A stretch of 45,108 nucleotides of DNA, taken from the UHGV virus genome UHGV-0324336. One strand, written 5' to 3'. The notes under the pieces are model-generated. The model searched no databases. It saw only the letters and a list, made by a program, of their open reading frames with translations, and was not told the DNA's origin. Within the stretch, counting starts at the first letter, position 1, and each line of letters opens with the position of its first letter. Source of the stretch: a virus. Of the stretch, positions 1-45,108 are shown piece after piece. The translations under genes were made by a program, and so were the position numbers.

Positions 1-152
1 ATCATCTACATGTCACAACGTGCATCTACGCCATCAAACCACGTCAAATAATCAATTATGACGCAGGTATCGTATTAATTGATCTGCATCAACTTAACGT
101 AAAAACAACTTCAGACAATACAAATCAGCGACACTGAATACGGGGCAACCTC

Positions 153-4935: not shown

Positions 4936-5011
<76 letters not shown>

Positions 5012-5013
5012 AT

Positions 5014-5090
<77 letters not shown>

Positions 5091-5091
5091 A

Positions 5092-5168
5092 CTGGACCGC
5101 CACCGGGGACTCGAACCTCGCACACTCAACTTAAAGGGTTGACGCTCTTTCCTGATGAGCTAGTGGCG
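5092..5168 (-). tRNA. tRNA-like gene with atypical anticodon loop (CCUUUAA; Lys-UUU-like but C33); possible pseudo- or non-canonical tRNA
   Basis: Manual fold: acceptor CCGCCAC/GTGGCGG, D-arm GCTC…GAGC, T-loop TTCGAGT, CCA encoded, but position 33 is C and T-stem has an A·C mismatch. Confidence 0.5.
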
Positions 5169-5169
5169 G

Positions 5170-5245
5170 CTGGTGGCCCTTGCTGGATTTGAACCAGCGA
5201 CCTGGCGATTATGAGTCGCTCGCTCTCACCACTGAGCTAAAGGGC
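5170..5245 (-). tRNA. tRNA-Ile2/Met type (anticodon CAU), ileX/ileZ-like
   Basis: Manual fold: GGCCCTTTAGCTCAGTGGTGAGAGC…CTCATAA…GGTTCAAATCC…GGGCCACCA; closely resembles recalled E. coli ileX (lysidine tRNA-Ile2). Confidence 0.75.
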
Positions 5246-5351
5246 CGGGCGCAGGATAATAACGTTACGAAATCAATGTTGCAAGCATTCAAAAATCACC
5301 CTTATCTCCTCCACCAGCGCATTCACCATGTCTATCCGAGATAAGTGGCAC

Positions 5352-9463: not shown

Positions 9464-10843
9464 ATGTGGAAAGATAAGTATATTTGTCATAAATGCGTGA
9501 ACGATAAATATGTCATGCAGCATATAATAAAAACCGGAAATAATGTTCGGATTTGCTCTTACTGCAAAAGGAAGCGTAAAAACATCCACCTCAAATATAT
9601 TCTCAAGATGATGAATGAGGTTTTTGAGTACTACTATGATATGTATGAGGATATCTATGATTCCGGGCGCGGTGATAGCGCGCAGGATGTCATCTGCGGA
9701 GAACTGGGCGTCGAATGGGACGTAGCTGAAGATATTTATGAATTTCTTTGTGATGAATATAATCCGCATAACGATTATGACTACATCCGGTATAATGATG
9801 GGTTTGTTTATCGGCACATAAATCACTATAGCGGAGAGCTTGCGCATACCTGGAGTAAAGCCACTGACTCCCTTATGAAAGAAACACGATATTTTAACCG
9901 TGAAGTTAATGATTTCCTGGATTCACTTTTCAGTGATATCGATAAACTAAAAAACAGAGACAGTAATTCACCGATAAAAACTCTGACTGATGAGGTTCAT
10001 CTTTTTCGTGCAAGGGTCTTTGAGGACCAAGAGGAAGTAAAGCAAGCCTTGGAGCAGCCCGAGAAAAATTTTGGACCTCCCCCATCAACTTTGGCTCGGT
10101 CGGGCCGTATGAACGCACAGGGGATTTCAGTATTTTACGGTGCAACCTCAGTGAATTTGGCAATTGCTGAAGTAAGGCCGCCCGTCGGCAGTATTGTAGT
10201 AACGGCCTGTTTTGTACCGTTACGCGAGCTAAAAGTGCTGGACATTTCTGCCCTTGACTCGATTAGTTTCGGCTCAGGTAGTAAATTTGATCCTCAGACT
10301 CGCAAAACCAGTGAGCGCGCGATTTTTTTCAGTACGCTTTCCCGTAAGTTGACGCTTCCTACTTTTGGAAAAAGGCAGGACAGTGATTACCTCATCACCC
10401 AAGTGGTTGCCGATTACCTAGGTGACCGAAATAAATTTAAGCTTGATGGTGTCAGCTTTAAATCTACCCAGGTAGATGCCAACGGTGAGGATGCTGAGAT
10501 AGGATATAATGTCGTTCTGTTTAATAAGTCTTCCGGCGTCAGGCATGCCGCAGATAAATCTCGCCGATATAATGTTGAGATGTATGAACACATCGAAGAT
10601 GACCAGTATGCTTTTGTTCCGGAAATTCAGTTAATAGTTGAGGAACAAATAAAACCGAGACATATGGGTTCATTTTCATCCTCGCATGACAAAAATGATG
10701 CACTACTGTTGAAAACCAACAGTATGACTTATCATAAAATTACTGGTGTAAAATACCAAACAAGTGAGACGGAGATTCATCAGGGAGATAGTGTTCGAAA
10801 ACAAGAGCCACCTCAGAAATTCGATGACCTGATGGACTTCTGA
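9464..10843 (+). CDS. RES-domain protein (putative NAD+-targeting effector) with N-terminal CxxC…CxxC zinc-ribbon domain
   Basis: Candidate RES triad R215 (GRMN), E236 (LAIAEV), S331 (DGVSFKS) with intervening YG; N-terminal C8-x2-C11…C31-x2-C34; AT-rich codon usage. Confidence 0.65.
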   Translation: MWKDKYICHKCVNDKYVMQHIIKTGNNVRICSYCKRKRKNIHLKYILKMMNEVFEYYYDMYEDIYDSGRGDSAQDVICGELGVEWDVAEDIYEFLCDEYNPHNDYDYIRYNDGFVYRHINHYSGELAHTWSKATDSLMKETRYFNREVNDFLDSLFSDIDKLKNRDSNSPIKTLTDEVHLFRARVFEDQEEVKQALEQPEKNFGPPPSTLARSGRMNAQGISVFYGATSVNLAIAEVRPPVGSIVVTACFVPLRELKVLDISALDSISFGSGSKFDPQTRKTSERAIFFSTLSRKLTLPTFGKRQDSDYLITQVVADYLGDRNKFKLDGVSFKSTQVDANGEDAEIGYNVVLFNKSSGVRHAADKSRRYNVEMYEHIEDDQYAFVPEIQLIVEEQIKPRHMGSFSSSHDKNDALLLKTNSMTYHKITGVKYQTSETEIHQGDSVRKQEPPQKFDDLMDF

Positions 10844-11304: not shown

Positions 11305-12228
11305 TTAGTGTAATTCCGAAAGGAGCCTAGTAACAAACTCTTTATATGTTGTAGCTTTATAATCAAGCTTACGGTTTTCCTGTCTCATCACCGCGATGAG
11401 AAGACAAGCTGTAAAACACCAGAAGGGCGATGAATCTGAAAGGTTGTACCCCCCTATCATTGTTTGAATCCTTACTGCTATAGATGGATACTCTTCACCA
11501 CCCCATTTATCGATATCTGATGTTAAAGCGTGTATAGTAAAGGCGGCAAGTGTTATCCCCATTGCTCGTTTTTGCATGACCTCTTCATAGGTATGCCCAG
11601 CTTTTTTAGCATAGACTCCGACGCCCTTAGTTATATATTCACGAGCCCAAGAGTCACAGGCTAACTCTTCTTCATCCTTCTCTTGGGGATTTTCATGTTT
11701 TTTTTCTTCGGCTCGTGCTTGAACATGTTTATACTCATGAAGTATAGAAAAAGACAATGCTAATGCTACTAGATCAAAAACAGCCTGTTCTTGAATATTA
11801 TTCAAACTATCTCGCGCATCTGTTGGAAAAGGAATATCTTGAGGCCATGTAATATCAGCCGTATTCGCAACGCTTAGCAAAGACTTTGAAATATACAAAT
11901 GCTGTTTATAATTTAGTTCAAATTGGCCACGTTCTTCATCAGATTCTAAAGCCGACTCTAACGTCACACCTAGTAAGCATGCTTTTACTAGGGCTGGAGC
12001 ATATGTCTCAATCGTAAACCATGTACTAAACCCAAATAACCAAAAGAAATCGATAGTTTTAGAGTCAAACTCGATGCGCCTACTAGTTGCATTCATTGTT
12101 GATCCTAGGGCATCCTCTGCAAGTTCGACCGTGTGTTTATAGCTCTTCCAGGTCTGACAAAGTTCATCAGCATTCTCAGGAACAGCCCCTCTTAGGAGGT
12201 TTAAAACTATAGTATCTAGTGATGGCAT
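11305..12228 (-). CDS. putative zinc metallopeptidase (HExxH), possibly Lit-like phage-exclusion protease
   Basis: Single HEYKH motif at residues 164-168 of 307 aa; size and motif position close to e14 Lit (297 aa, HExxH ~160-164, recalled); AT-rich. Confidence 0.5.
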   Translation of the reverse strand: MPSLDTIVLNLLRGAVPENADELCQTWKSYKHTVELAEDALGSTMNATSRRIEFDSKTIDFFWLFGFSTWFTIETYAPALVKACLLGVTLESALESDEERGQFELNYKQHLYISKSLLSVANTADITWPQDIPFPTDARDSLNNIQEQAVFDLVALALSFSILHEYKHVQARAEEKKHENPQEKDEEELACDSWAREYITKGVGVYAKKAGHTYEEVMQKRAMGITLAAFTIHALTSDIDKWGGEEYPSIAVRIQTMIGGYNLSDSSPFWCFTACLLIAVMRQENRKLDYKATTYKEFVTRLLSELH

Positions 12229-15029: not shown

Positions 15030-15455
15030 TCAATGTACTGCCACAGCATTTCCTGCCGGGCCACCACGGTTCATCTGATTGAAACCGGCGATTGCCACTG
15101 CGACAAAATCATCAGCGTCTCTCACCAATCGCTCCCGCGTCTCCACCAGCTCCCGAAAATAAGCTGAACTGTGGCTGCGCATTCTGGCCACCAGCAAAGG
15201 TGGCATTGCCTTTTCGATCGCTGGTAACAACGCCTGAATTTTTTCAACTGCATCAGGGGTGTCTTTCTCTACCCAGCGGAAAATTTTCTGGGTATTGCGA
15301 GCCAGGGCTTCCGGATGGCTGTCGTCATACAGTTCAGGAAACGTCATACCCAACTCAAAATAAGCCTGGGTTATTCCAGCTGCTGGAACTTTTTCGCCAT
15401 CAGGACGCGCCCAGGCATTCATCGCCATGCGGATGTGTTCATGCTTGATTTTCAT
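15030..15455 (-). CDS. YdaT-family protein (Rac YdaT-like; proposed CII-like regulator/toxin)
   Basis: 141 aa, starts MKIKHEHIRMAMNAWA…; ATGA-coupled to the cro-like gene as ydaS-ydaT are in Rac (recalled). Confidence 0.55.
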   Translation of the reverse strand: MKIKHEHIRMAMNAWARPDGEKVPAAGITQAYFELGMTFPELYDDSHPEALARNTQKIFRWVEKDTPDAVEKIQALLPAIEKAMPPLLVARMRSHSSAYFRELVETRERLVRDADDFVAVAIAGFNQMNRGGPAGNAVAVH

Positions 15456-15682
15456 GAATCCCCCCCTTGGTTAGAAGGCGGATTATGATCAGAACCGGGA
15501 ATGACAACCGTCGGTATGTGTAACTCATATTTGAGCGCCCCGGCAGTGACTGCCTGAATTAGCAACGCCCATTTCCACGGAACCTCTTCCCCCCACATGC
15601 TGACTGTGGTTTTTGACGTTCCTAGAGCTGCGGCTGTTTTAACAACTCCGCCAAAATAGCCTAATACTTCTGATTTTTTCAT
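15452..15682 (-). CDS. Cro/YdaS-like HTH regulator (76 aa)
   Basis: MKKSEVLGYFGGVVKTAAALGTSKTTVSMW… HTH; GGAG 6 nt upstream of ATG at 15682; divergent from cI. Confidence 0.7.
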   Translation of the reverse strand: MKKSEVLGYFGGVVKTAAALGTSKTTVSMWGEEVPWKWALLIQAVTAGALKYELHIPTVVIPGSDHNPPSNQGGDS

Positions 15683-15710
15683 AAGTCGCTCCATAAAACT
15701 GAACGCCAAA

Positions 15711-15773
15711 ATTTTAATAATCAAAACCAAAGAAAGTCAAGAAACAAAACCATCTGTGTTTTAAAATCAAAAC
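15711..15773. promoter_or_regulatory. OR-like operator region between cro and cI
   Basis: ATTTTAATAATCAAAAC (15711-15727) and GTTTTAAAATCAAAAC (15758-15773, abutting cI ATG): inverted half-sites GTTTT/AAAAC. Confidence 0.45.
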
Positions 15774-16400
15774 ATGAGCAAGCAAACAATATCTGAACGC
15801 ATAACCCAACGTATGCATGCGCTAAACCTGAAAGGCAAAGACCTTGTCAATGCCACTGGCGCATCAAAAGGCTCCGTAAGTCAATGGATGAACGGTGGAG
15901 GAGCGCCGTCCTCGCGTTACATAAGTTCACTGGCAAAGATATTGAAAGTAAACGAAAATTGGCTTCTTAATGGAGGAGAGTTAAATACAGGTGATTCGCT
16001 TGATCTATCTTTACCGCCGATAAAAACGGTTCCGCTACTATCAGCAAGCTGGAGTGATTATATGAAAAATTCCTCAATAACCTCTTGTGTGCAGCTTGTC
16101 GGAGAAATCCCGGCCAATACCTTTGCAGTTGTTCTAGAGAGTGACAGTATGTCAACATCTGGTGGGGGAGTTTCCATCCCAAATGGTTCAACAGTTTTTG
16201 TTGATCCCGATCGAACCGTACAACCAGGAAATATTGTCCTTGCCTTACCCAAAGGGACCACAACACCTGTCATTCGTAAACTGGAGATAGAAGGGCCGGA
16301 TATTCTTTTAGTCCCCACGAATCCTCGCTACCCTTCAATTATGCTGGATGATCTATCTTGCATATTGGGCGTATGCTTTAAAATTCAACAAGATATTTAA
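15774..16400 (+). CDS. CI-like prophage repressor (HTH_XRE + S24 LexA-type autopeptidase)
   Basis: N-terminal HTH (ATGASKGSVSQWMNG); C-terminal S24 signature with Ser in ESDSMS and Lys in VIRKL. Confidence 0.85.
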   Translation: MSKQTISERITQRMHALNLKGKDLVNATGASKGSVSQWMNGGGAPSSRYISSLAKILKVNENWLLNGGELNTGDSLDLSLPPIKTVPLLSASWSDYMKNSSITSCVQLVGEIPANTFAVVLESDSMSTSGGGVSIPNGSTVFVDPDRTVQPGNIVLALPKGTTTPVIRKLEIEGPDILLVPTNPRYPSIMLDDLSCILGVCFKIQQDI

Positions 16401-18262: not shown

Positions 18263-20704
18263 ATGAGCACTGATAAAGAAGAATTTGCACTATATTGCGA
18301 AGCAAAAAATGACAAAGTAAGAAAACGCCTAGGAATTAAAGGTGGTTTTTACTGGACTACAGCAAAAAAATTATCTGTTGCAATCTCCCGCTGCATTACC
18401 GCAATGGATGACAACGATTATGATGAAGACGACTTTAAAAAACCCGTCCGCGTCAATTTGCCCGTTGTTGACGACCTTCCGCCAGAAGGCGTGTTTGATA
18501 CTGAATTCTGCAACCGCTATGAAAAAGGCGGGAAAGATGGCATCACAATGACATTTATCGGCCCTTCCCCCTCTGTTCAGGACAAACCAGCCAGCACTGA
18601 CAATACCAACATCAACGGCGAAGACATGACTGAGATTGAGGAGAGCATGCTTCTGCCTGTCTCCGGTCAGGAACTGCCCATTCGTTGGCTTGCTCAACAC
18701 GGCAGCGAAAAACCAGTAACGCACGTTTCACGCGACGAACTCCAGGCATTACACATTGCACGGGCTGAAGAACTACCGGCTGTTACTGCCCTGGCTATTT
18801 CGCATAAAACCAGTCTGCTCGACTCGCTGGAGATTCGCGACCTCCACAAACTGGTTCGTGACACTGACAAAGTTTTCCCTAATCCTGGTAATTCAGACCT
18901 GGGACTAATAACTGCTTTTTTCGAAGCATACCTGGACGCTGACTACACTGATCGGGGTCTGCTGACAAAAGAGTGGATGAAAGGAAATCGTGTTTCACGC
19001 ATCACCCGCACGGCTTCCGGTGCTAATGCTGGCGGTGGGAACAAAACCGATCGCAATCCGAATTTAGTACACACCCTCGACACACTGGATGTGGAGATTG
19101 CAGCAGCCACACTTCCGATGGATTTTAATATTTATGAAATTCCGGGCAGCGTTTATCGTCGCGCAAAAGAAGTAGTCCTGAACAAAGAAAGTCCGTTCAA
19201 AGAATGGTCCGCAGCACTTCGTGCAACCCCGGGTATTCTGGACTATTCCCGCGCCGCTATTTTTGCACTTATCCGAAGCGCACACCCTGAATTTTATCAC
19301 TACCCGGGACGCCTTCAGGGGTATATCAACGCCTATTTGACGGAAACTGATCACGAGAACCCCAGCAAGGAAACTCTCACAGCTGCCCGGCATACGCCGG
19401 AAAAAGATATCCTGGAAGAAATTAACCGCGAGGTGGTTACTGAGCGTGAAACAGAAGAAGAAAAACCACAACCATCTGACGCAATGGCAGGTGAACAGGC
19501 AACAACTGAAACAATGGAACCGGATACAACTGAACATGGCCAGAACGCGCAGTCGCTGGATGCTCAGTCGCAGGTGAGTTCCGCTAACCAAGTAAAAGTC
19601 ACCGCTGACGAAGTAAACAAAATTATGCAGGCAGCCAATATCAGCCAGCCTGACGCCGATAAGTTACTTGCTGTATCGCGTGGTGAATTTGTTGAGGGGA
19701 TTAGCGACCCTAATGATCCGAAATGGGTCAAGGGGATCCAGACTCGCGATTCTGTGAACCAGAACCAGCATGAATCGGAACGGAACGACCAAAAAGCGGA
19801 ACAAAACAGCCCAAATGCGTTACAAAACGAGCCAGAAACGAAACAATCCGAACCAGTAGCGCAACAGGAACCGGAAAAAGTCTGCACCGCCTGCGGTCAG
19901 AGCGGTGGCGGCAACTGCCCTGATTGTGGCGCGGTGATGGGCGACGCAACATACCAGGAAACATTCGATGAAGAGAATCAGGTTGAAGTTCAGGAAAATG
20001 ATCCGGAGGAAATGGAAGGCGCTGAACATCCACACAAGGAGAACCCTGGCGGCAATCAGCATCACGCCAGCGATAATAAAACTGGCGAGGCGACAGATCC
20101 CTTAATTAAGGTGAATGGTCATCATAAGCTCACATCCACCAGCAGAGCGGGGATTCATCTGATGATCGACCTTGAAACCATGGGAAAAAATCCCGATGCC
20201 CCAATTATCTCAATAGGCGCAATATTTTTCGATCCACAAACCGGAGATATGGGACCGGAATTTAGCAAGACCATCGATCTGGATACTGCTGGCGGAGTCA
20301 TTGATCGTGACGTCATTAAATGGTGGCTAAAGCAATCACGTGAAGCGCAGTCTGCCATTATGACCGATGAAATCCCGTTAGATGATGCACTACTGCAATT
20401 GCGGGAATTTATCGACGAAAACTCCGGTGAATTTTTTGTTCAGGTCTGGGGTAATGGGGCCAACTTCGACAACGTGATTTTACGCCGTTCATACGAACGA
20501 CAGGGTATCCCCTGCCCGTGGCGCTACTGCAACGATCGCGATGTACGCACAATCGTTGAGCTGGGGAAAGCCATAGACTTCGATGCCAGAACTGCTATCC
20601 CATTCGAAGGTGAGCGCCATAATGCACTTGATGACGCTCGTTACCAGGCAAAATACGTTTCAGCTATCTGGCAAAAACTGATCCCGAGTCAGGCTGATTT
20701 TTAA
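18263..20704 (+). CDS. RecE/YdfE-family protein with C-terminal DEDDh 3'-5' exonuclease domain (813 aa)
   Basis: C-terminal DnaQ-like motifs: DLETMG (Exo I), NGANFD (Exo II), HNALDDARY (Exo III); acidic low-complexity middle; CTACG…CPDCG zinc-ribbon-like element. Confidence 0.65.
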   Translation: MSTDKEEFALYCEAKNDKVRKRLGIKGGFYWTTAKKLSVAISRCITAMDDNDYDEDDFKKPVRVNLPVVDDLPPEGVFDTEFCNRYEKGGKDGITMTFIGPSPSVQDKPASTDNTNINGEDMTEIEESMLLPVSGQELPIRWLAQHGSEKPVTHVSRDELQALHIARAEELPAVTALAISHKTSLLDSLEIRDLHKLVRDTDKVFPNPGNSDLGLITAFFEAYLDADYTDRGLLTKEWMKGNRVSRITRTASGANAGGGNKTDRNPNLVHTLDTLDVEIAAATLPMDFNIYEIPGSVYRRAKEVVLNKESPFKEWSAALRATPGILDYSRAAIFALIRSAHPEFYHYPGRLQGYINAYLTETDHENPSKETLTAARHTPEKDILEEINREVVTERETEEEKPQPSDAMAGEQATTETMEPDTTEHGQNAQSLDAQSQVSSANQVKVTADEVNKIMQAANISQPDADKLLAVSRGEFVEGISDPNDPKWVKGIQTRDSVNQNQHESERNDQKAEQNSPNALQNEPETKQSEPVAQQEPEKVCTACGQSGGGNCPDCGAVMGDATYQETFDEENQVEVQENDPEEMEGAEHPHKENPGGNQHHASDNKTGEATDPLIKVNGHHKLTSTSRAGIHLMIDLETMGKNPDAPIISIGAIFFDPQTGDMGPEFSKTIDLDTAGGVIDRDVIKWWLKQSREAQSAIMTDEIPLDDALLQLREFIDENSGEFFVQVWGNGANFDNVILRRSYERQGIPCPWRYCNDRDVRTIVELGKAIDFDARTAIPFEGERHNALDDARYQAKYVSAIWQKLIPSQADF

Positions 20705-20762: not shown

Positions 20763-20966
20763 ATGAGCAGCTTATTTTTAACCGAAGATGAATTGCTAAT
20801 ATTAACGGGCTGCAAATATGCAAGCCACCAGCGAAAATGGCTAATGGAAAACGGGCTTCCGTTCTATACCAATCGTAGTGGCAAACCGATTGTCAGCCGG
20901 AATCTATTTACCTGCAATAAAACTTTACCACCACGCGAGGTAGAGCCGAATTTTGGTGCGATCTGA
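20763..20966 (+). CDS. DUF4224-like small protein in excisionase position
   Basis: 67 aa MSSLFLTEDELLILTGCKYASHQRKWLMENGLPF…; stop overlaps int ATG (TGATG). Confidence 0.5.
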   Translation: MSSLFLTEDELLILTGCKYASHQRKWLMENGLPFYTNRSGKPIVSRNLFTCNKTLPPREVEPNFGAI

Positions 20967-21289
20967 TGGGAAGACGAAGGAAAAATCCTGAACACGAAAA
21001 ATTACCTCCAAATGTATACCCAAATAAATATAGTTATGTATGGAAACCAACATCCAGAGAATCTGTCACACTAACCGCCATCAAGGATGGTTTAGCTGCT
21101 TTATGGAAAAAGTATGAGGAAACTGTAAATAATCGCGATCGTGCAATGACATTCGGTCGCTTGTGGGAAAAATTCCTCGCCAGCGCCTATTACAGTGACC
21201 TTAGACCGATGATACAGAGTCGAAAAATCAAAGAGTTAAAAATTTTTCTTGGAATAAATGTCTTAAAATCGTACACGAAAAATCAATGA
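20966..21289 (+). pseudogene. int: integrase N-terminal fragment (arm-binding domain only; truncated tyrosine recombinase)
   Basis: MGRRRKNPEHEKLPPNVY… aligns with lambda Int N-terminus (MGRRRSHERRDLPPNLY…) but ORF stops after 107 aa; no catalytic domain (R..HxxR..Y) in any frame before the next gene. Confidence 0.75.
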
Positions 21290-21513
21290 ATTACATAACA
21301 TTAAAGAAGAATATTCCAAGCCTTCTTGAGTCTACCACCTGTTTTCAGGTGTCATTCAGACGTGATTTGCCCCAGATTGGGAAAGCACGCTTTTTTCTCA
21401 GCTTATTCCATTTTGCCTGTGTGTTGAATAATTCCACTGCAGTTATATAAAATCGGTAACGGCTGGAAATAATTCAATACTCGTACTATCGAAAGTTAAC
21501 CAGCCAGCCGCAG

Positions 21514-21552
21514 TATCCTATCATGACAAGTTACTGCGGCTTTTTACTTTTT
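21514..21552 (+). terminator. hairpin plus T-rich tract at int/tail-fibre junction
   Basis: AGCCGCAGTA-(14 nt)-TACTGCGGCT followed by TTTTTACTTTTTA on + strand. Confidence 0.35.
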
Positions 21553-21556
21553 ATAT

Positions 21557-21859
21557 TTAACGGATCAACATCCAGATCAGCAGACACGCCACCACCGGCA
21601 CAGCAAAATCCATCAGGCTTGCCACATCCCACGCGCGCGGATCAAAACCGCCCCACCACGGCATATTCATACGCTTGCCATGCCCGAACATTTCAATCCA
21701 GCGATATTCTGCCTGGGTGTGTTCACGCGCAATGAAGAACGTACAACCGGCTATCGCCCCGTAAGCCCAGTTCCCGGTAAAAAGACCAATCAGTAGCTGC
21801 GCAGCCACAGCACAAAGCGCATGAAGGAAAGGTGTTATATCCATTTTCATCCTACCCAA
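21557..21859 (-). CDS. small integral membrane protein downstream of tail-fibre genes (function unknown; exclusion candidate)
   Basis: 100 aa with several hydrophobic segments; 27 nt after the preceding fibre gene, last gene before the int fragment. Confidence 0.5.
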   Translation of the reverse strand: MGRMKMDITPFLHALCAVAAQLLIGLFTGNWAYGAIAGCTFFIAREHTQAEYRWIEMFGHGKRMNMPWWGGFDPRAWDVASLMDFAVPVVACLLIWMLIR

Positions 21860-21886: not shown

Positions 21887-22927
21887 TTATTTAGACGCAA
21901 GCGCCGCCTCAATTGCAGATAATCTTTGTCTTAATTCTGCGTTTTCTTCTTCCAGTGCTGTTATTCTGTCGTCTGACTCTCTGGCTACCTGAACAAGCAA
22001 GCCAGTAATACCAGAATAATCTACTGTGTAATAACGTTCACCTTCTTCACCTTCCGATCCGCTTGCACCGTCCTGATATTTCATTGCGGAACCTACAACT
22101 TCCGGGATTGCTTCCAGAGCTTCCTGTGCAATGACACCAGCATAGGGCATACCGTTTTCTTTAAGCGTGTATGTATAGCCGTTCATTTTACGGATGCGGT
22201 CGGTTGCATTATCGATCACCTGAATGTTGTCTTTCAGATCCCGGTCGGAATGCTGGTTAAATGCGGTGGCATGACATGCACCATTAACGCTTAACATATA
22301 GGTGTTATCGGTATTTTTCTGCGCATAGAACATATAAGCGCCACCATCAACACCGACTTCATAAACAACAGGACGGCTGGAGTTGCCCCACAATCGAGCA
22401 GTAACACCAGCATAAGCGGTTCCCCGTGTGTTTAATGTCATGGTTGACCCATGATTGGCATATTTGATCTGTAATGTGTCGGTGTAATCAAATTTAATAA
22501 GCGCGTTACTTCCACGCTTGCTGTATGACATAAGGCAGTTACCCATTTTGAGGTATCCGCTGTCACCGGGAAAAATCATCGTACCGCCATAAAGGTTGGT
22601 AAAGTCCCAGCAAATGTTTGTCCCGTTATCGTTCAGGTTAAGGCGCGCCATTGCGTTACCTGGACTGTCTATCCATTTTTTGAGGTATAGTTCGCAATAC
22701 GCATCCTCAACACCTGCCGTCCTGTGAGTTGAGCGGAGTTTTCTCCCAAATATAGCTCCGCTAGTTGGCAATACCTGCTGATACCATGAAGCAGACCAGT
22801 CACCAACGATTTCATCTTTGCTGTCTACATATAATTTTGTTGCGTAGCTTCCTTGATCGTTTTTTAATTTGCTAACGTCGGATTTTAGCGTTTTGATGTC
22901 ATCAGGAATTACTGTCGATGTAGCCAT
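21887..22927 (-). CDS. tail fibre/spike-like protein with C-terminal S74 intramolecular-chaperone autoprotease domain
   Basis: C-terminal S-D-R-D-L-K-D-N-I motif (Ser-Lys dyad of endosialidase-type chaperone domains), then coiled-coil tail ITALEEENAELRQRL. Confidence 0.65.
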   Translation of the reverse strand: MATSTVIPDDIKTLKSDVSKLKNDQGSYATKLYVDSKDEIVGDWSASWYQQVLPTSGAIFGRKLRSTHRTAGVEDAYCELYLKKWIDSPGNAMARLNLNDNGTNICWDFTNLYGGTMIFPGDSGYLKMGNCLMSYSKRGSNALIKFDYTDTLQIKYANHGSTMTLNTRGTAYAGVTARLWGNSSRPVVYEVGVDGGAYMFYAQKNTDNTYMLSVNGACHATAFNQHSDRDLKDNIQVIDNATDRIRKMNGYTYTLKENGMPYAGVIAQEALEAIPEVVGSAMKYQDGASGSEGEEGERYYTVDYSGITGLLVQVARESDDRITALEEENAELRQRLSAIEAALASK

Positions 22928-22936
22928 TTTTCTTCC

Positions 22937-23218
22937 TCACATCCAGCCACGAAGTTGATGCTCAACAGCAACCACGTATTCATCGAATAATGACGATATT
23001 TGCGAATCATTAATGATGCGCACGTTTACAAAATATCCGTCTTCCTTAACACATACCGGTTCGCCATCTTCAGTCAGTTCTCCGGTTTCTTTGTACACGT
23101 TACCTATCACGTCAATAAGAATATCATCCTGCATCGACTCGTCATCATAATAGCCAATACTCTCCATAAAGGCCGAAAAGTCGGCCCTGTCGGCAAATTT
23201 GAGTGTTAAATCTTTCAT
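22937..23218 (-). CDS. small acidic protein translationally coupled to stf (possible fibre assembly factor)
   Basis: 93 aa; start overlaps stf stop (TAATG); 9-nt gap to next fibre gene; not lambda Tfa. Confidence 0.45.
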   Translation of the reverse strand: MKDLTLKFADRADFSAFMESIGYYDDESMQDDILIDVIGNVYKETGELTEDGEPVCVKEDGYFVNVRIINDSQISSLFDEYVVAVEHQLRGWM

Positions 23219-25452
23219 TAGATTGACTCCCCCACCTGAGCATCAGTCAATGCCTTGTGCCATATTCTGAAATTCCTGACATGACCAAATAAATGACGTA
23301 ACCCGGCTGTAGTCTGACCTCCAATACGGATAATTGCGGTGTTCTGAATACAGGACCATGTGGTTTTTGTTTCGCTGGATATATGCCCGTTACTTACTGA
23401 GCACGTAGACTGCTCTGACTTTACACGCATCCCCATAACCATTTTTTCAAGCGATGCGTTTTCGTTTACCCGTCTGCTAGCTCCTCCAATATCGCAATAA
23501 GGAAATCCGTCGTAATCTGTTGAACGACCGAAGCCAAGAATAATAGCCGCTCCGGTTTGATGACCGCCGGTATCAAAAACACGTGGCGCTGCATTTGGCG
23601 TTTTATACCAGTTCTTATGTACCTCACAAAGAACCGTAAAAGGAAGATTATAAAGATTATTCTTAATTGGAACTGTAACTATATCGCTTGCGCGGGTCGC
23701 CGCCGTCGCTCCTGATATAATAAAAGATGATACACAAGGCCCATCTTCTACTTGTGGGGTGGCCAGATAAATATAGTCACCAGATACGGTTGCCCCGCTC
23801 TGCTTAGGAGAATACTGTATCTGAGAGCCTATTTTTAACTCCCCATCAATTGCCTGAATTGTTGCCTCTGCAAAAATCCATCCGGTAGCTTCGTCCTTTC
23901 TGACTCTCGCTGTAATCCTTGAGGCAGCACCGCCTGTCATATTAATTTCAAGCGTTTGTGTATCAATATACGCATCACCAAGAAAAGTTGTTGCGCTACC
24001 GTCATATTTATCAAACCGGATACGCAACCTTACCTGCAGTTCTGTTTTAAAACGACATGAGGTTGTCACGTGTTTATTATCGCCTGAGACATCAACTGAC
24101 TTTGTTGCAGCAATTGATGCCATATTAATGGCTGAGGTTTGCCCAATCAGAGAATCGTTGCAGACAAACTTTCCATAGGTAAAACCAAAATTATCCGTCC
24201 CTGTTTCGGGCACATCCATATTTGACGATCGCCCCCAACTGGCAGGGCTTTCCGAATTGAGCATGTAGTTTGTTCTTTGCCCCTCAATAAGCAGGCCATC
24301 ACGTTCAAATCGTGGCTCGTCAATGGCAGCCTCTGTCAGCACACCAGATTTATTAATATAGGTTGCTTTCGATGCACGTTTAAACTTAACAATCTTGTCG
24401 CCAGGCATCGTTATTTCGTCGTCACCAATAACAATCTTTTTATATGATGGCGAAAAGCCCGTAATCATATCCAGTGAATCGTTAAACGGTATCCACACAT
24501 CAGGCAGCGGCTGTAAGACATATTTATACGGATCTGCTGCCTGGCTTGCATACTCTCTGGCTGCGTCTTCACTTGCTTTTGCAGCGGTCTGGCTTGCAGC
24601 GGATGCTTTCGCCGAGTTGGCCGCCGCAGTTTCGCTGGCTTTGGCATTCGTTTCGCTGGTCTTCGCTGCCGTCTGGCTGGACTTTGCGTTAGTTTCACTC
24701 GTCTTCGCAGCTTTCTGGCTGTTAGCCGCAGCAGTTGCTGATCCAGCTGCTGAAGTCGCAGAACCGGCTGCCGCGCTCTCGCTTTGGGCTGCTGCAACCT
24801 GGCTGTTTTTTGCCGCAGTTTCACTGGCTTTGGCATTCGTTTCGCTGGTTTTCGCTGCCGTCTGGCTGGACTTTGCGTTGGTTTCGCTCGTCTTTGCGGC
24901 TGTCTCGCTATTTTTCGCGTTGGTTTCTGATTTTTTGGCTGCTGTCGCGGAGTTTTCTGATGCAGTCTGTGAGGTCGCTGCCGCCTGTGCACTATTAGCT
25001 GCATTCGTTTCTGAGGTTTTCGCCGCGTTCTTCGATGATGCCGCTGCAGTTTCGGATTTCTTTGCCGCCGCTGCGCTCTGAGAGGCGGCTTCGGCGTTGC
25101 GTGCCGCTTCTTCCACCATTTCCTCAAAACGACGCAATGCCTCCGGCATGACATCATCTTCCGTCATGGCACCGAGAAAATCATTCAGCGTACCTGGTCT
25201 GGAACCTTCATAGACGGTAATGGTTCCGGCATGTGAAGGCGGAAAACCTTCAACAAGCAGGATAACGCTGTACTGGCCATACTCAACATCCATGCTGTAA
25301 CGCCCGGCTTCATCCGGATTTTCAGAGGCCACCGTGTTCACCAGTACCGTGGTGCTGTTACGCTTTGCCTTCAGTTGAATAGTGCAGTTCTGTATTGGTT
25401 TTCCCGCACCATCTTTCAGCACACCTGAGATTTTTACTGCTGCCATATCCAC
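23218..25452 (-). CDS. stf: side tail fibre Stf (lambda-like N-terminus, non-lambda C-terminal LamG/ConA-like lectin domain)
   Basis: N-terminus MAVKISGVLKDGAGKPIQNCTIQLKA… matches lambda Stf; Ala/Ser/Thr-rich helical repeats; C-terminal …LFGHVRNFRIWHKALTDAQV typical of LamG-type domains. Confidence 0.8.
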   Translation of the reverse strand: MDMAAVKISGVLKDGAGKPIQNCTIQLKAKRNSTTVLVNTVASENPDEAGRYSMDVEYGQYSVILLVEGFPPSHAGTITVYEGSRPGTLNDFLGAMTEDDVMPEALRRFEEMVEEAARNAEAASQSAAAAKKSETAAASSKNAAKTSETNAANSAQAAATSQTASENSATAAKKSETNAKNSETAAKTSETNAKSSQTAAKTSETNAKASETAAKNSQVAAAQSESAAAGSATSAAGSATAAANSQKAAKTSETNAKSSQTAAKTSETNAKASETAAANSAKASAASQTAAKASEDAAREYASQAADPYKYVLQPLPDVWIPFNDSLDMITGFSPSYKKIVIGDDEITMPGDKIVKFKRASKATYINKSGVLTEAAIDEPRFERDGLLIEGQRTNYMLNSESPASWGRSSNMDVPETGTDNFGFTYGKFVCNDSLIGQTSAINMASIAATKSVDVSGDNKHVTTSCRFKTELQVRLRIRFDKYDGSATTFLGDAYIDTQTLEINMTGGAASRITARVRKDEATGWIFAEATIQAIDGELKIGSQIQYSPKQSGATVSGDYIYLATPQVEDGPCVSSFIISGATAATRASDIVTVPIKNNLYNLPFTVLCEVHKNWYKTPNAAPRVFDTGGHQTGAAIILGFGRSTDYDGFPYCDIGGASRRVNENASLEKMVMGMRVKSEQSTCSVSNGHISSETKTTWSCIQNTAIIRIGGQTTAGLRHLFGHVRNFRIWHKALTDAQVGESI
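24623..24900. repeat. two ~89-bp near-identical direct repeats 189 bp apart inside stf
   Basis: GCCGCAGTTTCGCTGGCTTTGGCATTCGTTTCGCTGG… at 24623-24711 and 24812-24900; encode repeated AAKTSETNAKxS units. Confidence 0.7.
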
Positions 25453-44417: not shown

Positions 44418-44443
<26 letters not shown>

Positions 44444-44963
44444 TCAGCAACCCCGGTATCAGTTCATCCAGCGCGGCTGCTTTGTTCATGGCTTTGATGA
44501 TATCCCGTTTCAGGAAATCAACATGTCGGTTTTCCAGTTCCGGAAAACGCCGCTGCACCGACAGGGGGAGCCCGTCGAGAATACTGGCAATTTCACCTGC
44601 GATCCGCGACAACACGAAAGTACAGAATGCGGTTTCCACCACTTCAGCGGAGTCTCTGGCATTCTTCAGTTCCTGTGCGTCGGCCTGCGCACGCGTAAGT
44701 CGATGGCGTTCGTACTCAATAGTTCCTGGCTGGAGATCTGCCTCGCTGGCCTGCCGCAGTTCTTCAACCTCCCGGCGCAGCTTTTCGTTCTCAATTTCAG
44801 CATCCCTTTCGGCATACCATTTTATGACGGCGGCAGAGTCATAAAGCACCTCATTACCCTTGCCACCGCCTCGCAGAACGGGCATTCCCTGTTCCTGCCA
44901 GTTCTGAATGGTACGGATACTCGCACCGAAAATGTCAGCCAGCTGCTTTTTGTTGACTTCCAT
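44418..44963 (-). CDS. Nu1: terminase small subunit Nu1
   Basis: 181 aa MEVNKKQLADIFGASIRTIQNWQEQGMPVLRGGGKGNEVLYD… as lambda Nu1 (winged HTH). Confidence 0.95.
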
Positions 44964-45108
44964 TGTTCATTCCACGGACAAAAACAGAGAAAGGAAACGA
45001 CAGAGGCCAAAAAGCTCGCTTTCAGCACCTGTCGTTTCCTTTCTTTTCAGAGGGTATTTTAAATAAAAACATTAAGTTATGACGAAGAAGAACGGAAACG
45101 CCTTAAAC
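44964..45108 (-). promoter_or_regulatory. cosB-type terminase-binding region (partial; cosN lies beyond window end)
   Basis: Reverse complement of window end (GTTTAAGGCGTTTCCGTTCTTCTTCGTCATAACTTAATGTTTTTATTTAAAATACCCTCTGAAAAGAAAGGAAACGACAG…) matches recalled lambda left-end sequence ~positions 55-190. Confidence 0.8.

Follow-up and report, generated by a model that had tools for sequence, protein, structure and literature searches.

A truncated integrase gene beside the tail-fibre genes of a lambdoid phage genome is probably the scar of one 897-bp deletion

Deletions anchored at the cleavage region of a phage's own recombinase were inferred by lambda genetics half a century ago, and have rarely been documented in environmental phage genomes. 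The lambda b2 mutant and the Int-promoted deletions at the att crossover reportedly go back to Kellenberger, Zichichi and Weigle, to Parkinson 1971 and to Davis and Parkinson 1971. These laboratory-selected mutants are viable, cos-packaged lambdoid genomes, in which the immunity genes are intact and site-specific integration is lost. Lambda b2 produces turbid plaques and abortive, non-integrated lysogens (PMC4951002). The lambda bio-type specialised transducing phages, products of aberrant excision, have acquired host DNA and lack a piece of their own that reaches from att into int, towards the int side of the vegetative map; their tail end and P arm remain. Nearest in sequence to the locus described here are intact phages and prophages which sit between zinT and the tRNA-Ser(CGA) gene serU, namely phage vB_EcoS-689R5 (ON470583, below 689R5) and the prophages PF9285, M15 and M7424. 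Tandem lysogens are also on record; E. coli M15 has one at serU, with a vegetative int-attP-tail-fibre junction inside the chromosome, and Islander lists 125 tandem islands (PMC4383910).

We analysed UHGV virus genome UHGV-0324336, a stretch of 45,108 nucleotides which as a whole is called the window below. It derives from contig k141_15535 (45,119 bp, MEGAHIT) of the ENA metagenome assembly ERZ27314033 and is a metagenome consensus. A truncated integrase gene, int', lies here beside the tail-fibre genes, and we explain this arrangement as a scar: a lambdoid phage lost 897 bp in one deletion, and its genome was then sequenced as linear, cos-ended virion DNA. To this reading we give a probability of about 0.85. 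As in the lambda att/int deletion mutants, the genome appears to be a viable, cos-packaged one with its deletion anchored at the att crossover, its immunity genes intact and site-specific integration lost. Lambda b2 lost the P arm and the b region and kept int, whereas the window lost the P' arm, the core and most of int and kept the P arm; its att is furthermore of the tRNA anticodon-loop type and not the gal-bio site of lambda, and it was recovered from a metagenome assembly and not by selection in the laboratory. The loss from att into int and the retained tail end and P arm are shared with the bio-type phages, but unlike these the window acquired no host DNA. The P arm is as in the intact serU relatives, which in contrast to the window have a full 341-aa Int, three P'-arm repeats and a 62-bp core identical to serU; PF9285 and M15 moreover carry HK97-type late genes, whereas those of the window are lambda-type. 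Compared with the tandem lysogens, the window has neither the intact junction nor the host genes at the outer ends. The features of the region are listed in Table 1.

Table 1. Coordinates of the features discussed, numbered from the first letter of the window.
Feature	Coordinates	Strand	Basis or remark
cos-proximal sequence, right end	1..60	.	Start lies 47 nt from cosN; comparison with PhiR42_1 across cos
cI-type repressor, 208 aa, HTH and S24 autopeptidase	15774..16400	+	Pfam Peptidase_S24 2.6e-13, HTH_3 1.7e-4
recE-like exonuclease, 813 aa	18263..20704	+	Pfam Exonuc_VIII 3.8e-36, Rv2179c-like 3.1e-66
DUF4224 gene, 67 aa, at the xis position, intact	20763..20966	+	Pfam DUF4224 2.8e-15
int', integrase-derived part, codons 1-79	20966..21204	+	Arm-binding N-domain and ~18 residues of the core-binding domain
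Deletion junction, AG common to both parental sequences	21203..21204	.	Alignments A1, A2
int', read-through tail, codons 80-107 and stop	21205..21289	+	att-arm DNA, not integrase coding
Surviving P arm of attP	21205..21556	.	97-99% collinear with the M7424 zinT-proximal junction (phage side) and the M15 internal attP
Arm-type repeat ATTCCAAG, P-arm copy 1, candidate site for the Int N-domain	21248..21255	-	One of 2 in the 45-kb window
Arm-type repeat ATTCCAAG, P-arm copy 2	21313..21320	+	Same counts as copy 1
10-bp hairpin (21506-21515 / 21532-21541), then a T-rich run	21506..21552	+	Fold
End gene of the tail-fibre operon, 100-aa ORF	21557..21859	-	ORF list
Tail-fibre module	21887..25452	-	Pfam Peptidase_S74 6.2e-14, phage_tail_N 5.4e-67
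cos-proximal sequence, left end, upstream of Nu1	44964..45108	.	Window end lies 44 nt from cosN

Measured against the attP of M15, the window is without 897 bp, comprising Int residues 80-341, the three P'-arm repeats and the tRNA-derived attP core except ACCG. The recE-DUF4224-int flank up to codon 79 is 96-99.5% identical to the serU relatives, and the flanks of the junction are 97-99.5% collinear with them. On the left side int runs into the junction as ...GTGACCTTAG; on the right the overlap TTTCGAG of the anticodon loop is represented by its final two bases, after which comes ACCGATGATAC, the loop coordinates being taken from ARAGORN and the sequence. In both alignments the window goes straight from int into ACCGATGATACAG, the opening bases of the P arm. 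A 2-bp microhomology is also left by Int-independent illegitimate recombination. An earlier note on this DNA had considered a phage-genome-type record with a decayed int; the absence of host genes and the ends some 45 nt from cosN agree with the record type, whereas decay is too vague a word for one clean deletion that took the attP core and the P' arm as well.

This junction was found in the window only. The exact 23-mer spanning it, GTGACCTTAGACCGATGATACAG, had 0 matches in IMG/VR, the GTDB species-representative genomes and the JGI metagenome contigs, and BLAST searches of the INPHARED phages and of 5,426 complete E. coli genomes gave no record that carries it. The seemingly full-coverage matches in M15 and noe1104 turned out to be two pieces ~900 bp apart, i.e. 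an intact int-attP. Homologues of int' were likewise limited to partial or frameshifted integrase copies with different tails, and no second such deletion was detected among them. Capture of host DNA, as in lambda bio, was considered for the sequence to the right of the junction and rejected, because this sequence is phage P arm from its first base, as in the M15 internal attP and unlike the K-12 attB.

The int' ORF (20966-21289, plus strand, 107 codons) is the stump of a lambda-Int-family integrase. It had been described as an int ORF that stops after a 107-aa arm-binding domain; the length is right, but integrase sequence makes up residues 1-79 only, and the remaining 28 residues are read-through. 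Up to residue 79 the sequence is identical to that of the intact 341-aa Int of 689R5, and from residue 80 onwards it is unrelated; in M15 and M7424 the DNA of the tail belongs to the P arm and is non-coding. From its first residue the intact Int aligns with lambda Int (1Z1B, E=1.2e-12, lambda residues 1-64, MGRRR...LPPN.Y); by this alignment and by its identity to the intact Int, int' contains the N-terminal arm-binding domain, and the Pfam arm-domain model gave no match on Int. The core-binding (SAM-like) domain, residues 62-154 of the intact Int (Pfam Phage_int_M, SAM_3), is kept only through residue 79, and the catalytic domain (PF00589, residues 183-317) is missing. The earlier note had pointed out that this domain might turn up in another frame, and we looked for it by tblastn in all six frames of the window, where none was found (best other match E=0.3). 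A frameshifted but otherwise intact int is ruled out because no frame holds a catalytic domain. In comparisons with 2,609 E. coli records and 76 phage records the homology to intact int breaks off sharply at 21204-21207, and by these comparisons the truncation is a true structural difference and not a chance ORF.

Between int' and the tail-fibre operon on the opposite strand lie 267 bp, in agreement with the ~270 bp of non-coding DNA noted earlier, but this is the surviving P arm rather than an anonymous spacer. What remains of the core is the half-site ACCG(A) at 21205-21209 together with the ambiguous AG; the tRNA-identity block, which in the intact relatives agrees with the 3' part of serU over all its 62 bp, is deleted along with the P' arm, so that the tRNA-derived core of the window is incomplete, and ARAGORN detected no tRNA remnant at the junction. 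In 689R5, PF9285 and M15 the tRNA-Ser(CGA) gene adjoins the intact int. We compared four att sequences (K-12 attB, the zinT-side junction of M7424, the attP of M15 and the int-side junction of PF9285), and found that A/T alleles of the host segregate with the host flank, and G/C alleles of the phage with the P' arm; the crossover is therefore confined to ACTCCGGTTTTCGAGACCG (19 bp). The junction AG falls inside this interval, at the end of the anticodon loop, and one endpoint of the deletion thus lies within the att overlap region. Among tRNA att sites, those that recombine in the anticodon loop form a recognised class (PMC4383910).

The intact attP has three copies of the arm-type repeat ATTCCAAG in its P' arm and two in its P arm, a lambda-like 3+2 layout. 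In M15, five of the six copies in 13.7 kb cluster round the att core, and six copies were reached in 0 of 200 shuffles; we presume that the repeat is bound by Int. The window keeps two of the five, both in the P arm, and has none on the P' side. For this common family of E. coli serU prophages the anatomy of attP is hereby defined in terms of a core, a 19-bp crossover interval and five arm repeats.

The source contig contains 0 host genes in its 45,119 bp and is without host flanks. Comparison with PhiR42_1 places the ends of the window 44 and 47 nt from cosN, which makes it a nearly complete cos-to-cos genome: exactly 91 nt, AGGTCGCCGCCC among them, separate the homologues of both ends in that phage. 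The window end matches approximately position 45 (range 32-46) of cos-started phage records, and the late genes are collinear with cos-started lambda-like records. It had been remarked that the window ends do not join to cos-proximal sequence, which is literally true because the 91 nt around cosN are missing, but misleading, as both ends are themselves lambda cos-proximal. The gene order, Nu1-A...J-stf-[att]-int'-xis-recE...cI/cro...Q-lysis, is vegetative and not prophage-collinear, as the earlier note had it, and this is borne out by the ORFs, the Pfam annotation and the comparison with relatives. Together with the unit length and the Nu1/A terminase genes at the left end (Nu1 ORF at 44418-44963, minus strand), it is that of a cos-type lambdoid virion genome. 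Judged from these comparisons the record is the linear cos-ended virion form of a lambda-like genome; cosN itself lies outside the contig, hence the physical ends are deduced and not observed.

We propose the following origin. The parent phage would have carried a lambda-Int-type integrase specific for the serU tRNA-Ser(CGA) gene, and an attP in which int was followed by three P' repeats and by the 62 bp of serU 3' part, where crossover took place in the anticodon loop; next would have come the P arm, bearing two arm-type repeats and the terminator-like hairpin, and finally the end of the tail-fibre operon. By the deletion, codon 79 of int would have come to lie against the overlap region of the anticodon loop, at its P-arm edge. 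The P' arm, the core except ACCG, the entire catalytic domain and the greater part of the core-binding domain would have been removed, and xis, the hairpin, a stump of the Int N-domain and two orphan arm sites would have stayed.

Whether Int itself initiated the deletion is in our view an even bet. On this view the cut by Int would have fallen in the attP core, or in the zinT-side junction of the prophage, and Int would have joined this end to a weak pseudo-site within its own gene, the presumed cut being TTAG|TCC within AGTGACCTTAGTCCAAGAAC, and the 2-3 nt of homology beside the cleavage point (AG) could have permitted the first strand swap. The same product could also have come from an aberrant excision, with the zinT-side junction and a site in int as its ends. 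Lambda deletions that depend on Int and have the att crossover as one endpoint are said to have been described by Parkinson 1971, by Davis and Parkinson 1971 and by Weisberg and Landy in Lambda II; our full-text literature search on Int-promoted deletions returned nothing specific. Lambda Int is known to use hundreds of non-canonical sites (PMC5605937).

The same deletion, with the same consequences, may also have arisen independently of Int by microhomology-mediated illegitimate recombination, through replication slippage or gyrase-/topoisomerase-mediated joining, the end at the att core then being due to chance. We hold this for a serious possibility, though one with less than even odds. Exactly 2 bp (AG) are common at the junction, and the interrupted match AG.CC.A is typical of illegitimate joins. 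Aligned on AG, the pseudo-site in int matches the core at 7 of 17 positions and at 2 of 7 in the overlap, without dyad symmetry; a complete Int reaction there would be very inefficient. Against an origin without Int speak the positions of both breakpoints. The right one lies at the loop/stem boundary within the 19-bp crossover interval; the dispensable DNA from int to the next gene measures ~440 bp, which makes this a chance of ~4% by simple arithmetic and post hoc. The left one falls, in the 99.5%-identical int of PF9285, within TAGTCCAAG, which is one mismatch from the arm-site motif and 1 of only 8 matches (<=1 mismatch) to TATTCCAAG in 45.7 kb, or ~0.2% by arithmetic, again post hoc; both figures rest on one event. 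The breakpoint positions thus suggest, short of proof, that Int started the deletion.

A chromosomal origin of the window had also been put forward, in which two tandem prophages, one lambda-like and the other Qin-like, abut and int is disrupted at the joint. This we find quite improbable, even if M15 does have two prophages at serU whose internal junction shows int, attP and tail fibre in the same order. Packaging from cos to cos out of a tandem array would likewise give a genome with this gene order. However, the contig holds no host gene over its whole length and stops ~45 nt from cosN at each end, and the junction is present in 0 of the 5,426 complete E. coli genomes. Moreover, int on one side of the junction and its own P arm on the other belong to a single serU-type attP, with no chromosomal DNA, therefore no joint between unrelated elements is needed. 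As tandem serU prophages do exist, with an intact int-attP-tail-fibre junction, a tandem array may be a way in which a genome such as this one is maintained or packaged.

An assembly or sequencing artefact, by which int would truly be intact and the deletion absent from the phage (frameshift, collapsed region or chimeric join), is hardly credible: the record is a short-read metagenome assembly, and many public assemblies contain this int in partial or frameshifted form, but here 897 bp are absent and catalytic-domain sequence occurs in no frame, hence it is no frameshift, the flanks are otherwise 97-99.5% collinear with relatives, and a de Bruijn assembler (k up to 141) should need spanning reads to join sequences that share 2 bp.

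Returning to the deletion scar, the phage should no longer be able to insert into the host tRNA-Ser gene, since most of int and the attP core are deleted. Site-specific integration and excision are presumably lost even with Int supplied in trans, though cI looks intact, and by analogy with lambda b2 and the att-int deletion phages turbid plaques and abortive lysogens should be expected. Its other means of persistence would be lytic growth, homologous recombination into resident prophages, or residence in a tandem array. The window phage is a natural instance of a long-known type of phage mutant, ordinary in kind and neat in detail, and shows, at a tRNA-type att and resolved to the base pair, a deletion that is anchored in the region where the recombinase itself cleaves. 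It also calls for caution in annotation, as an int fragment and cI are not sufficient to label a contig as prophage or a phage as integration-proficient. As a long shot, we speculate that Int-catalysed self-deletion between attP and a pseudo-att is a recurrent natural route to integration-dead lineages of the serU type, and that the retained unit might be a decoy; the Int stump, the two orphan arm sites and xis would then interfere with integration or excision of related resident serU prophages.

The recE-like gene is the final early-left gene ahead of xis/int, and is annotated as exodeoxyribonuclease VIII in relatives. The stop codon of the DUF4224 gene overlaps the start codon of int, and the gene is found at the equivalent position in 689R5, M15 and PF9285; from this position we take it to be xis-like, with a putative role as excisionase. 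The cI-type repressor is apparently intact, and cro (15452-15730, minus strand, P22_Cro match) is divergent from it. Three ORFs make up the tail-fibre module: one for a fibre of 346 aa that carries a Peptidase_S74 chaperone domain, one of 93 aa, and one for a protein of 744 aa whose N-terminal domain is of the side-tail-fibre type; beyond the module follow lom and then J (Pfam). The end gene of the operon had no match in the Pfam search; its homologues are 95-aa products in relatives and a 'putative membrane protein' in phage 21, and it is kept beside the tail-fibre genes in many lambdoid phages.

The hairpin in the P arm folds with -18.1 kcal/mol (z=-3.4), and 0 of 200 shuffles were equally stable. 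It is a candidate terminator for the xis-int transcripts, at the position of tI/sib in lambda. With a loop of more than 8 nt, it was not picked up by a scan for consensus terminators. M15 shares the inverted repeat (I2).

The junction between the 107-codon integrase ORF (int') and the tail-fibre genes is the scar of a deletion through att and int in a virion-form lambdoid genome. Over residues 1-79, int' and the 341-aa integrase of phage vB_EcoS-689R5 (ON470583) are identical, and from residue 80 the two are unrelated. The 107-aa integrase ORF described in the earlier note exists as an ORF, but residues 1-79 alone are integrase and the rest is read-through. The intact Int can be aligned with lambda Int from end to end (1Z1B, E=1.2e-12), the alignment beginning at MGRRR...LPPN.Y, and by Pfam its core-binding domain spans residues 62-154 and its catalytic domain 183-317; by these boundaries the integrase part of int' consists of the arm-binding N-domain followed by about 18 core-binding residues. 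A tblastn search of the window with the intact Int found no further Int sequence (best other match E=0.3) and no catalytic domain in another frame, and the truncation thereby stands. In the intact Int (689R5, L001:5367-6392; also L002:6065-7115 and L007:31503-32553) HDLK is found in place of HELR of lambda Int, hence the equivalent of the active-site arginine R311 is a lysine. PGAP marks the intact-family int gene 'frameshifted' in E. coli M15 and PF9285, and public assemblies hold many frameshifted or partial copies of the 689R5-type integrase.

Beyond the gene following int' lie a Peptidase_S74-chaperone tail fibre, a 93-aa ORF, a 744-aa protein bearing a prophage tail-fibre N-terminal domain, and then lom and J; the vegetative gene order noticed earlier is real. 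The gap to the tail-fibre operon, previously put at about 270 bp of non-coding DNA, does measure 267 bp, but the P arm, the tail-fibre-side flank of the attP core, survives within it. The side-tail-fibre gene (23218-25452, minus strand) contains a long run of Ala/Ser/Thr-rich repeats with KTSETNAKSSQTAA-like units at about 24395-25157; the long ORFs that this run creates on the opposite strand and in the remaining frames are spurious.

Features around the integrase stump (window coordinates)
Feature	Position	Strand	Remark
recE-like exonuclease gene	18263-20704	+	first of three consecutive genes
DUF4224 gene, 67 codons, xis position	20763-20966	+	
int' ORF, 107 codons	20966-21289	+	start overlaps DUF4224 stop
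Candidate arm-type octamer, surviving P arm	21248-21255	-	
Candidate arm-type octamer, surviving P arm	21313-21320	+	
10-bp hairpin then T-run	21506-21552	+	-18.1 kcal/mol, z=-3.4
Next gene after int'	21557-21859	-	

For all relatives the window's homology with intact int genes ends at 21204-21207, and from 21203 the window is homologous to a segment that thousands of E. coli prophages carry beside tail-fibre genes. We aligned the window with K-12 attB (the empty site in serU, the tRNA-Ser(CGA) gene), the zinT-side junction of the M7424 prophage, the internal attP of M15 and the int-side junction of PF9285. A 62-bp block, TGGCGGAGAGAGGGGG...CTCCGGTTTTCGAGACCG, is common to all four references; in reverse complement it corresponds to the 3' part of tRNA-Ser(CGA), reaching through the anticodon loop to take in four 5' anticodon-stem bases. 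To the right of ACCG the host reads GTCCGTTCAG, the 5' half of serU, and the phage reads ATGATACAGAGTCG, the P arm. At the junction the window reads ...TTACAGTGACCTTAG-ACCGATGATACAGAGTCG, int codon 79 running directly into the last core bases, and AG (21203-21204) are the sole bases common to both parents at the join. As measured on M15, the deletion spans 897 bp and removed Int residues 80-341, the post-int spacer and, apart from ACCG, the whole tRNA-identity block.

Two compensatory polymorphisms in the variable arm distinguish the host allele A...T (K-12 attB and M7424 zinT side) from the phage allele G...C (M15 attP and PF9285 int side). Each allele remains with its own flank, hence the crossover lies within ACTCCGGTTTTCGAGACCG, which runs from the last polymorphism to the point where identity ends. 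This 19-bp interval contains the 7-nt anticodon loop, TTTCGAG when read in this direction, flanked by the stem halves CCGGT and ACCG(A/G), as in tRNA att sites of the anticodon-loop class (PMC4383910). The deletion junction falls at the last two anticodon-loop bases, on the loop/stem boundary of the P-arm side. Deletions of att and int are a known kind of event, here resolved to the base pair in a natural tRNA-type att site.

M15 carries the octamer ATTCCAAG as three tandem copies at the int 3' end (P' arm) and as two copies in the P arm, one of them inverted. Five of the six copies within 13.7 kb are clustered at att, and six copies were reached in none of 200 shuffles. The arrangement resembles the 3+2 arm-type sites of lambda, and we suggest these octamers as candidate arm-type sites bound by Int. 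The 45-kb window has just two copies, both in the surviving P arm. The hairpin occupies the place of lambda tI/sib and is a putative terminator of transcripts exiting xis-int.

We put the probability that Int cut at the core and started the deletion at roughly one half; circumstantially, the endpoints point to an integrase that excised its own gene. Dispensable DNA from int to the next gene amounts to ~440 bp, of which the right endpoint hits the 19-bp crossover interval (~4% by simple arithmetic), and the left breakpoint, when placed on the int gene of PF9285 (99.5% identity with the window), falls within TAGTCCAAG, one of eight sites in 45.7 kb with at most one mismatch to the arm motif TATTCCAAG (~0.2% by arithmetic), both figures being post hoc and from a single event. 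Parkinson in 1971, and Davis and Parkinson in the same year, are said to have described lambda deletions that depend on Int and have one endpoint at the att crossover, and such deletions are reportedly reviewed in Lambda II. Int may have acted on attP in a circular or replicating genome or, during excision, on the zinT-side junction; AG beside the cut would permit a strand swap with a pseudo-site in int, after which replication or a junction resolvase could resolve the intermediate. Lambda Int has been found to use hundreds of non-canonical sites (PMC5605937). The pseudo-site is a poor likeness of the core, with 7/17 matching positions, AG.CC.A at the join and no dyad symmetry, and Int-independent illegitimate recombination is a serious rival for the origin of the deletion, which we consider possible without favouring it.

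The junction 23-mer is absent from IMG/VR, the GTDB representative genomes and JGI metagenome contigs, the junction is found in no INPHARED phage and no complete E. coli genome, and a homologue search with the stump gave only frameshifted or partial integrases carrying other tails. The join is unlikely to be an artefact of assembly, since sequences sharing 2 bp can be joined by a k-mer assembler only via reads that span the join.

The window begins with ATCATCTACATGTCAC and ends in ...GAACGGAAACGCCTTAAAC. In phage PhiR42_1, deposited in permuted order and used as reference across cos, exactly 91 nt separate the homologues of both ends (CGGAAAATTTTCATAAATAGCGAAAACCCGCG-AGGTCGCCGCCC-CGTAACCTG...ATAATAATT), so that the window ends are 44 nt and 47 nt short of cosN. 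By alignment, the window end corresponds to about position 45 (range 32-46) in cos-started lambda-like records. The 107-aa ORF has an exact protein match in one source, contig k141_15535 (45,119 bp) of the ENA metagenome assembly ERZ27314033; from the gene offset of 11 nt the window is this contig minus 11 nt at the left, and the contig carries no host genes. Ends tens of bases from cosN on both sides are the pattern expected of linear cos-cut DNA, and the record appears to be virion DNA whose cohesive ends lie outside the contig. The suggestion of a phage-genome-type record with a decayed int was right in outline, and that of a lambda-like and a Qin-like prophage in tandem, with int disrupted at their junction, is not right. 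A mosaic joint lies at about 3018, at the boundary of the R lysozyme and Rz ORFs: 3018-21207 matches the serU prophage of PF9285, whose head and tail genes are HK97-type, at 99.5% identity, and the remainder of the window is lambda-type late-gene DNA with 95-97% identity to PhiR46_1, ev243 and similar phages.

With neither catalytic domain nor core, the phage should be unable to integrate at serU, even if Int were supplied in trans. Its cI (ORF 15774-16400, plus strand; 208 aa with HTH and S24 peptidase domains), cro and remaining genome look intact, and no other recombinase was seen by tblastn for an Int-type catalytic domain or among the genes annotated in the early region of PF9285, which has 99.5% identity. 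By analogy with lambda b2, the precedent for turbid plaques and abortive lysogens (PMC4951002), the deleted phage should give both. Lytic spread, homologous recombination into resident related prophages and residence in a tandem array are possible routes by which the lineage persists. In M15 two head-to-tail prophages, joined by an intact int-attP-tail-fibre junction, occupy the interval from zinT to serU, hence tandem lysogens of the 689R5-type integrase family exist. In lambda genetics, cos-to-cos packaging from a tandem array would need no excision.

The M15 pair, whose members are related, occupies about 1,263,000-1,348,600 of NZ_CP185789.1 at serU, between zinT and mtfA (loci L004 and L005), and the copies differ in their immunity and replication regions. 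In the zinT-proximal copy, IS903B is inserted in the tail-fibre gene and, beside the tRNA-Arg genes, an IS5 family transposase gene stands at the position that a tRNA-Ile gene has in the other copy. For cI, the source-contig gene call and the PF9285 PGAP call span the C-terminal 112 aa only, and PF9285 cro is marked frameshifted.

Between the replication module and Q the window encodes a 459-aa RES-family NAD+ phosphorylase (9464-10843, plus strand) and a 307-aa Lit-family phage exclusion protein (Peptidase_U49; 11305-12228, minus strand), named from the annotation of the 99.5%-identical PF9285 prophage and a precomputed Pfam match; they are likely anti-phage or abortive-infection cargo. A tRNA cluster (4937-5246, minus strand) between Q and the lysis genes comprises Gly-TCC, Thr-TGT, Lys-TTT and a CAT-anticodon tRNA, the last being tRNA-Ile according to the PF9285 annotation.
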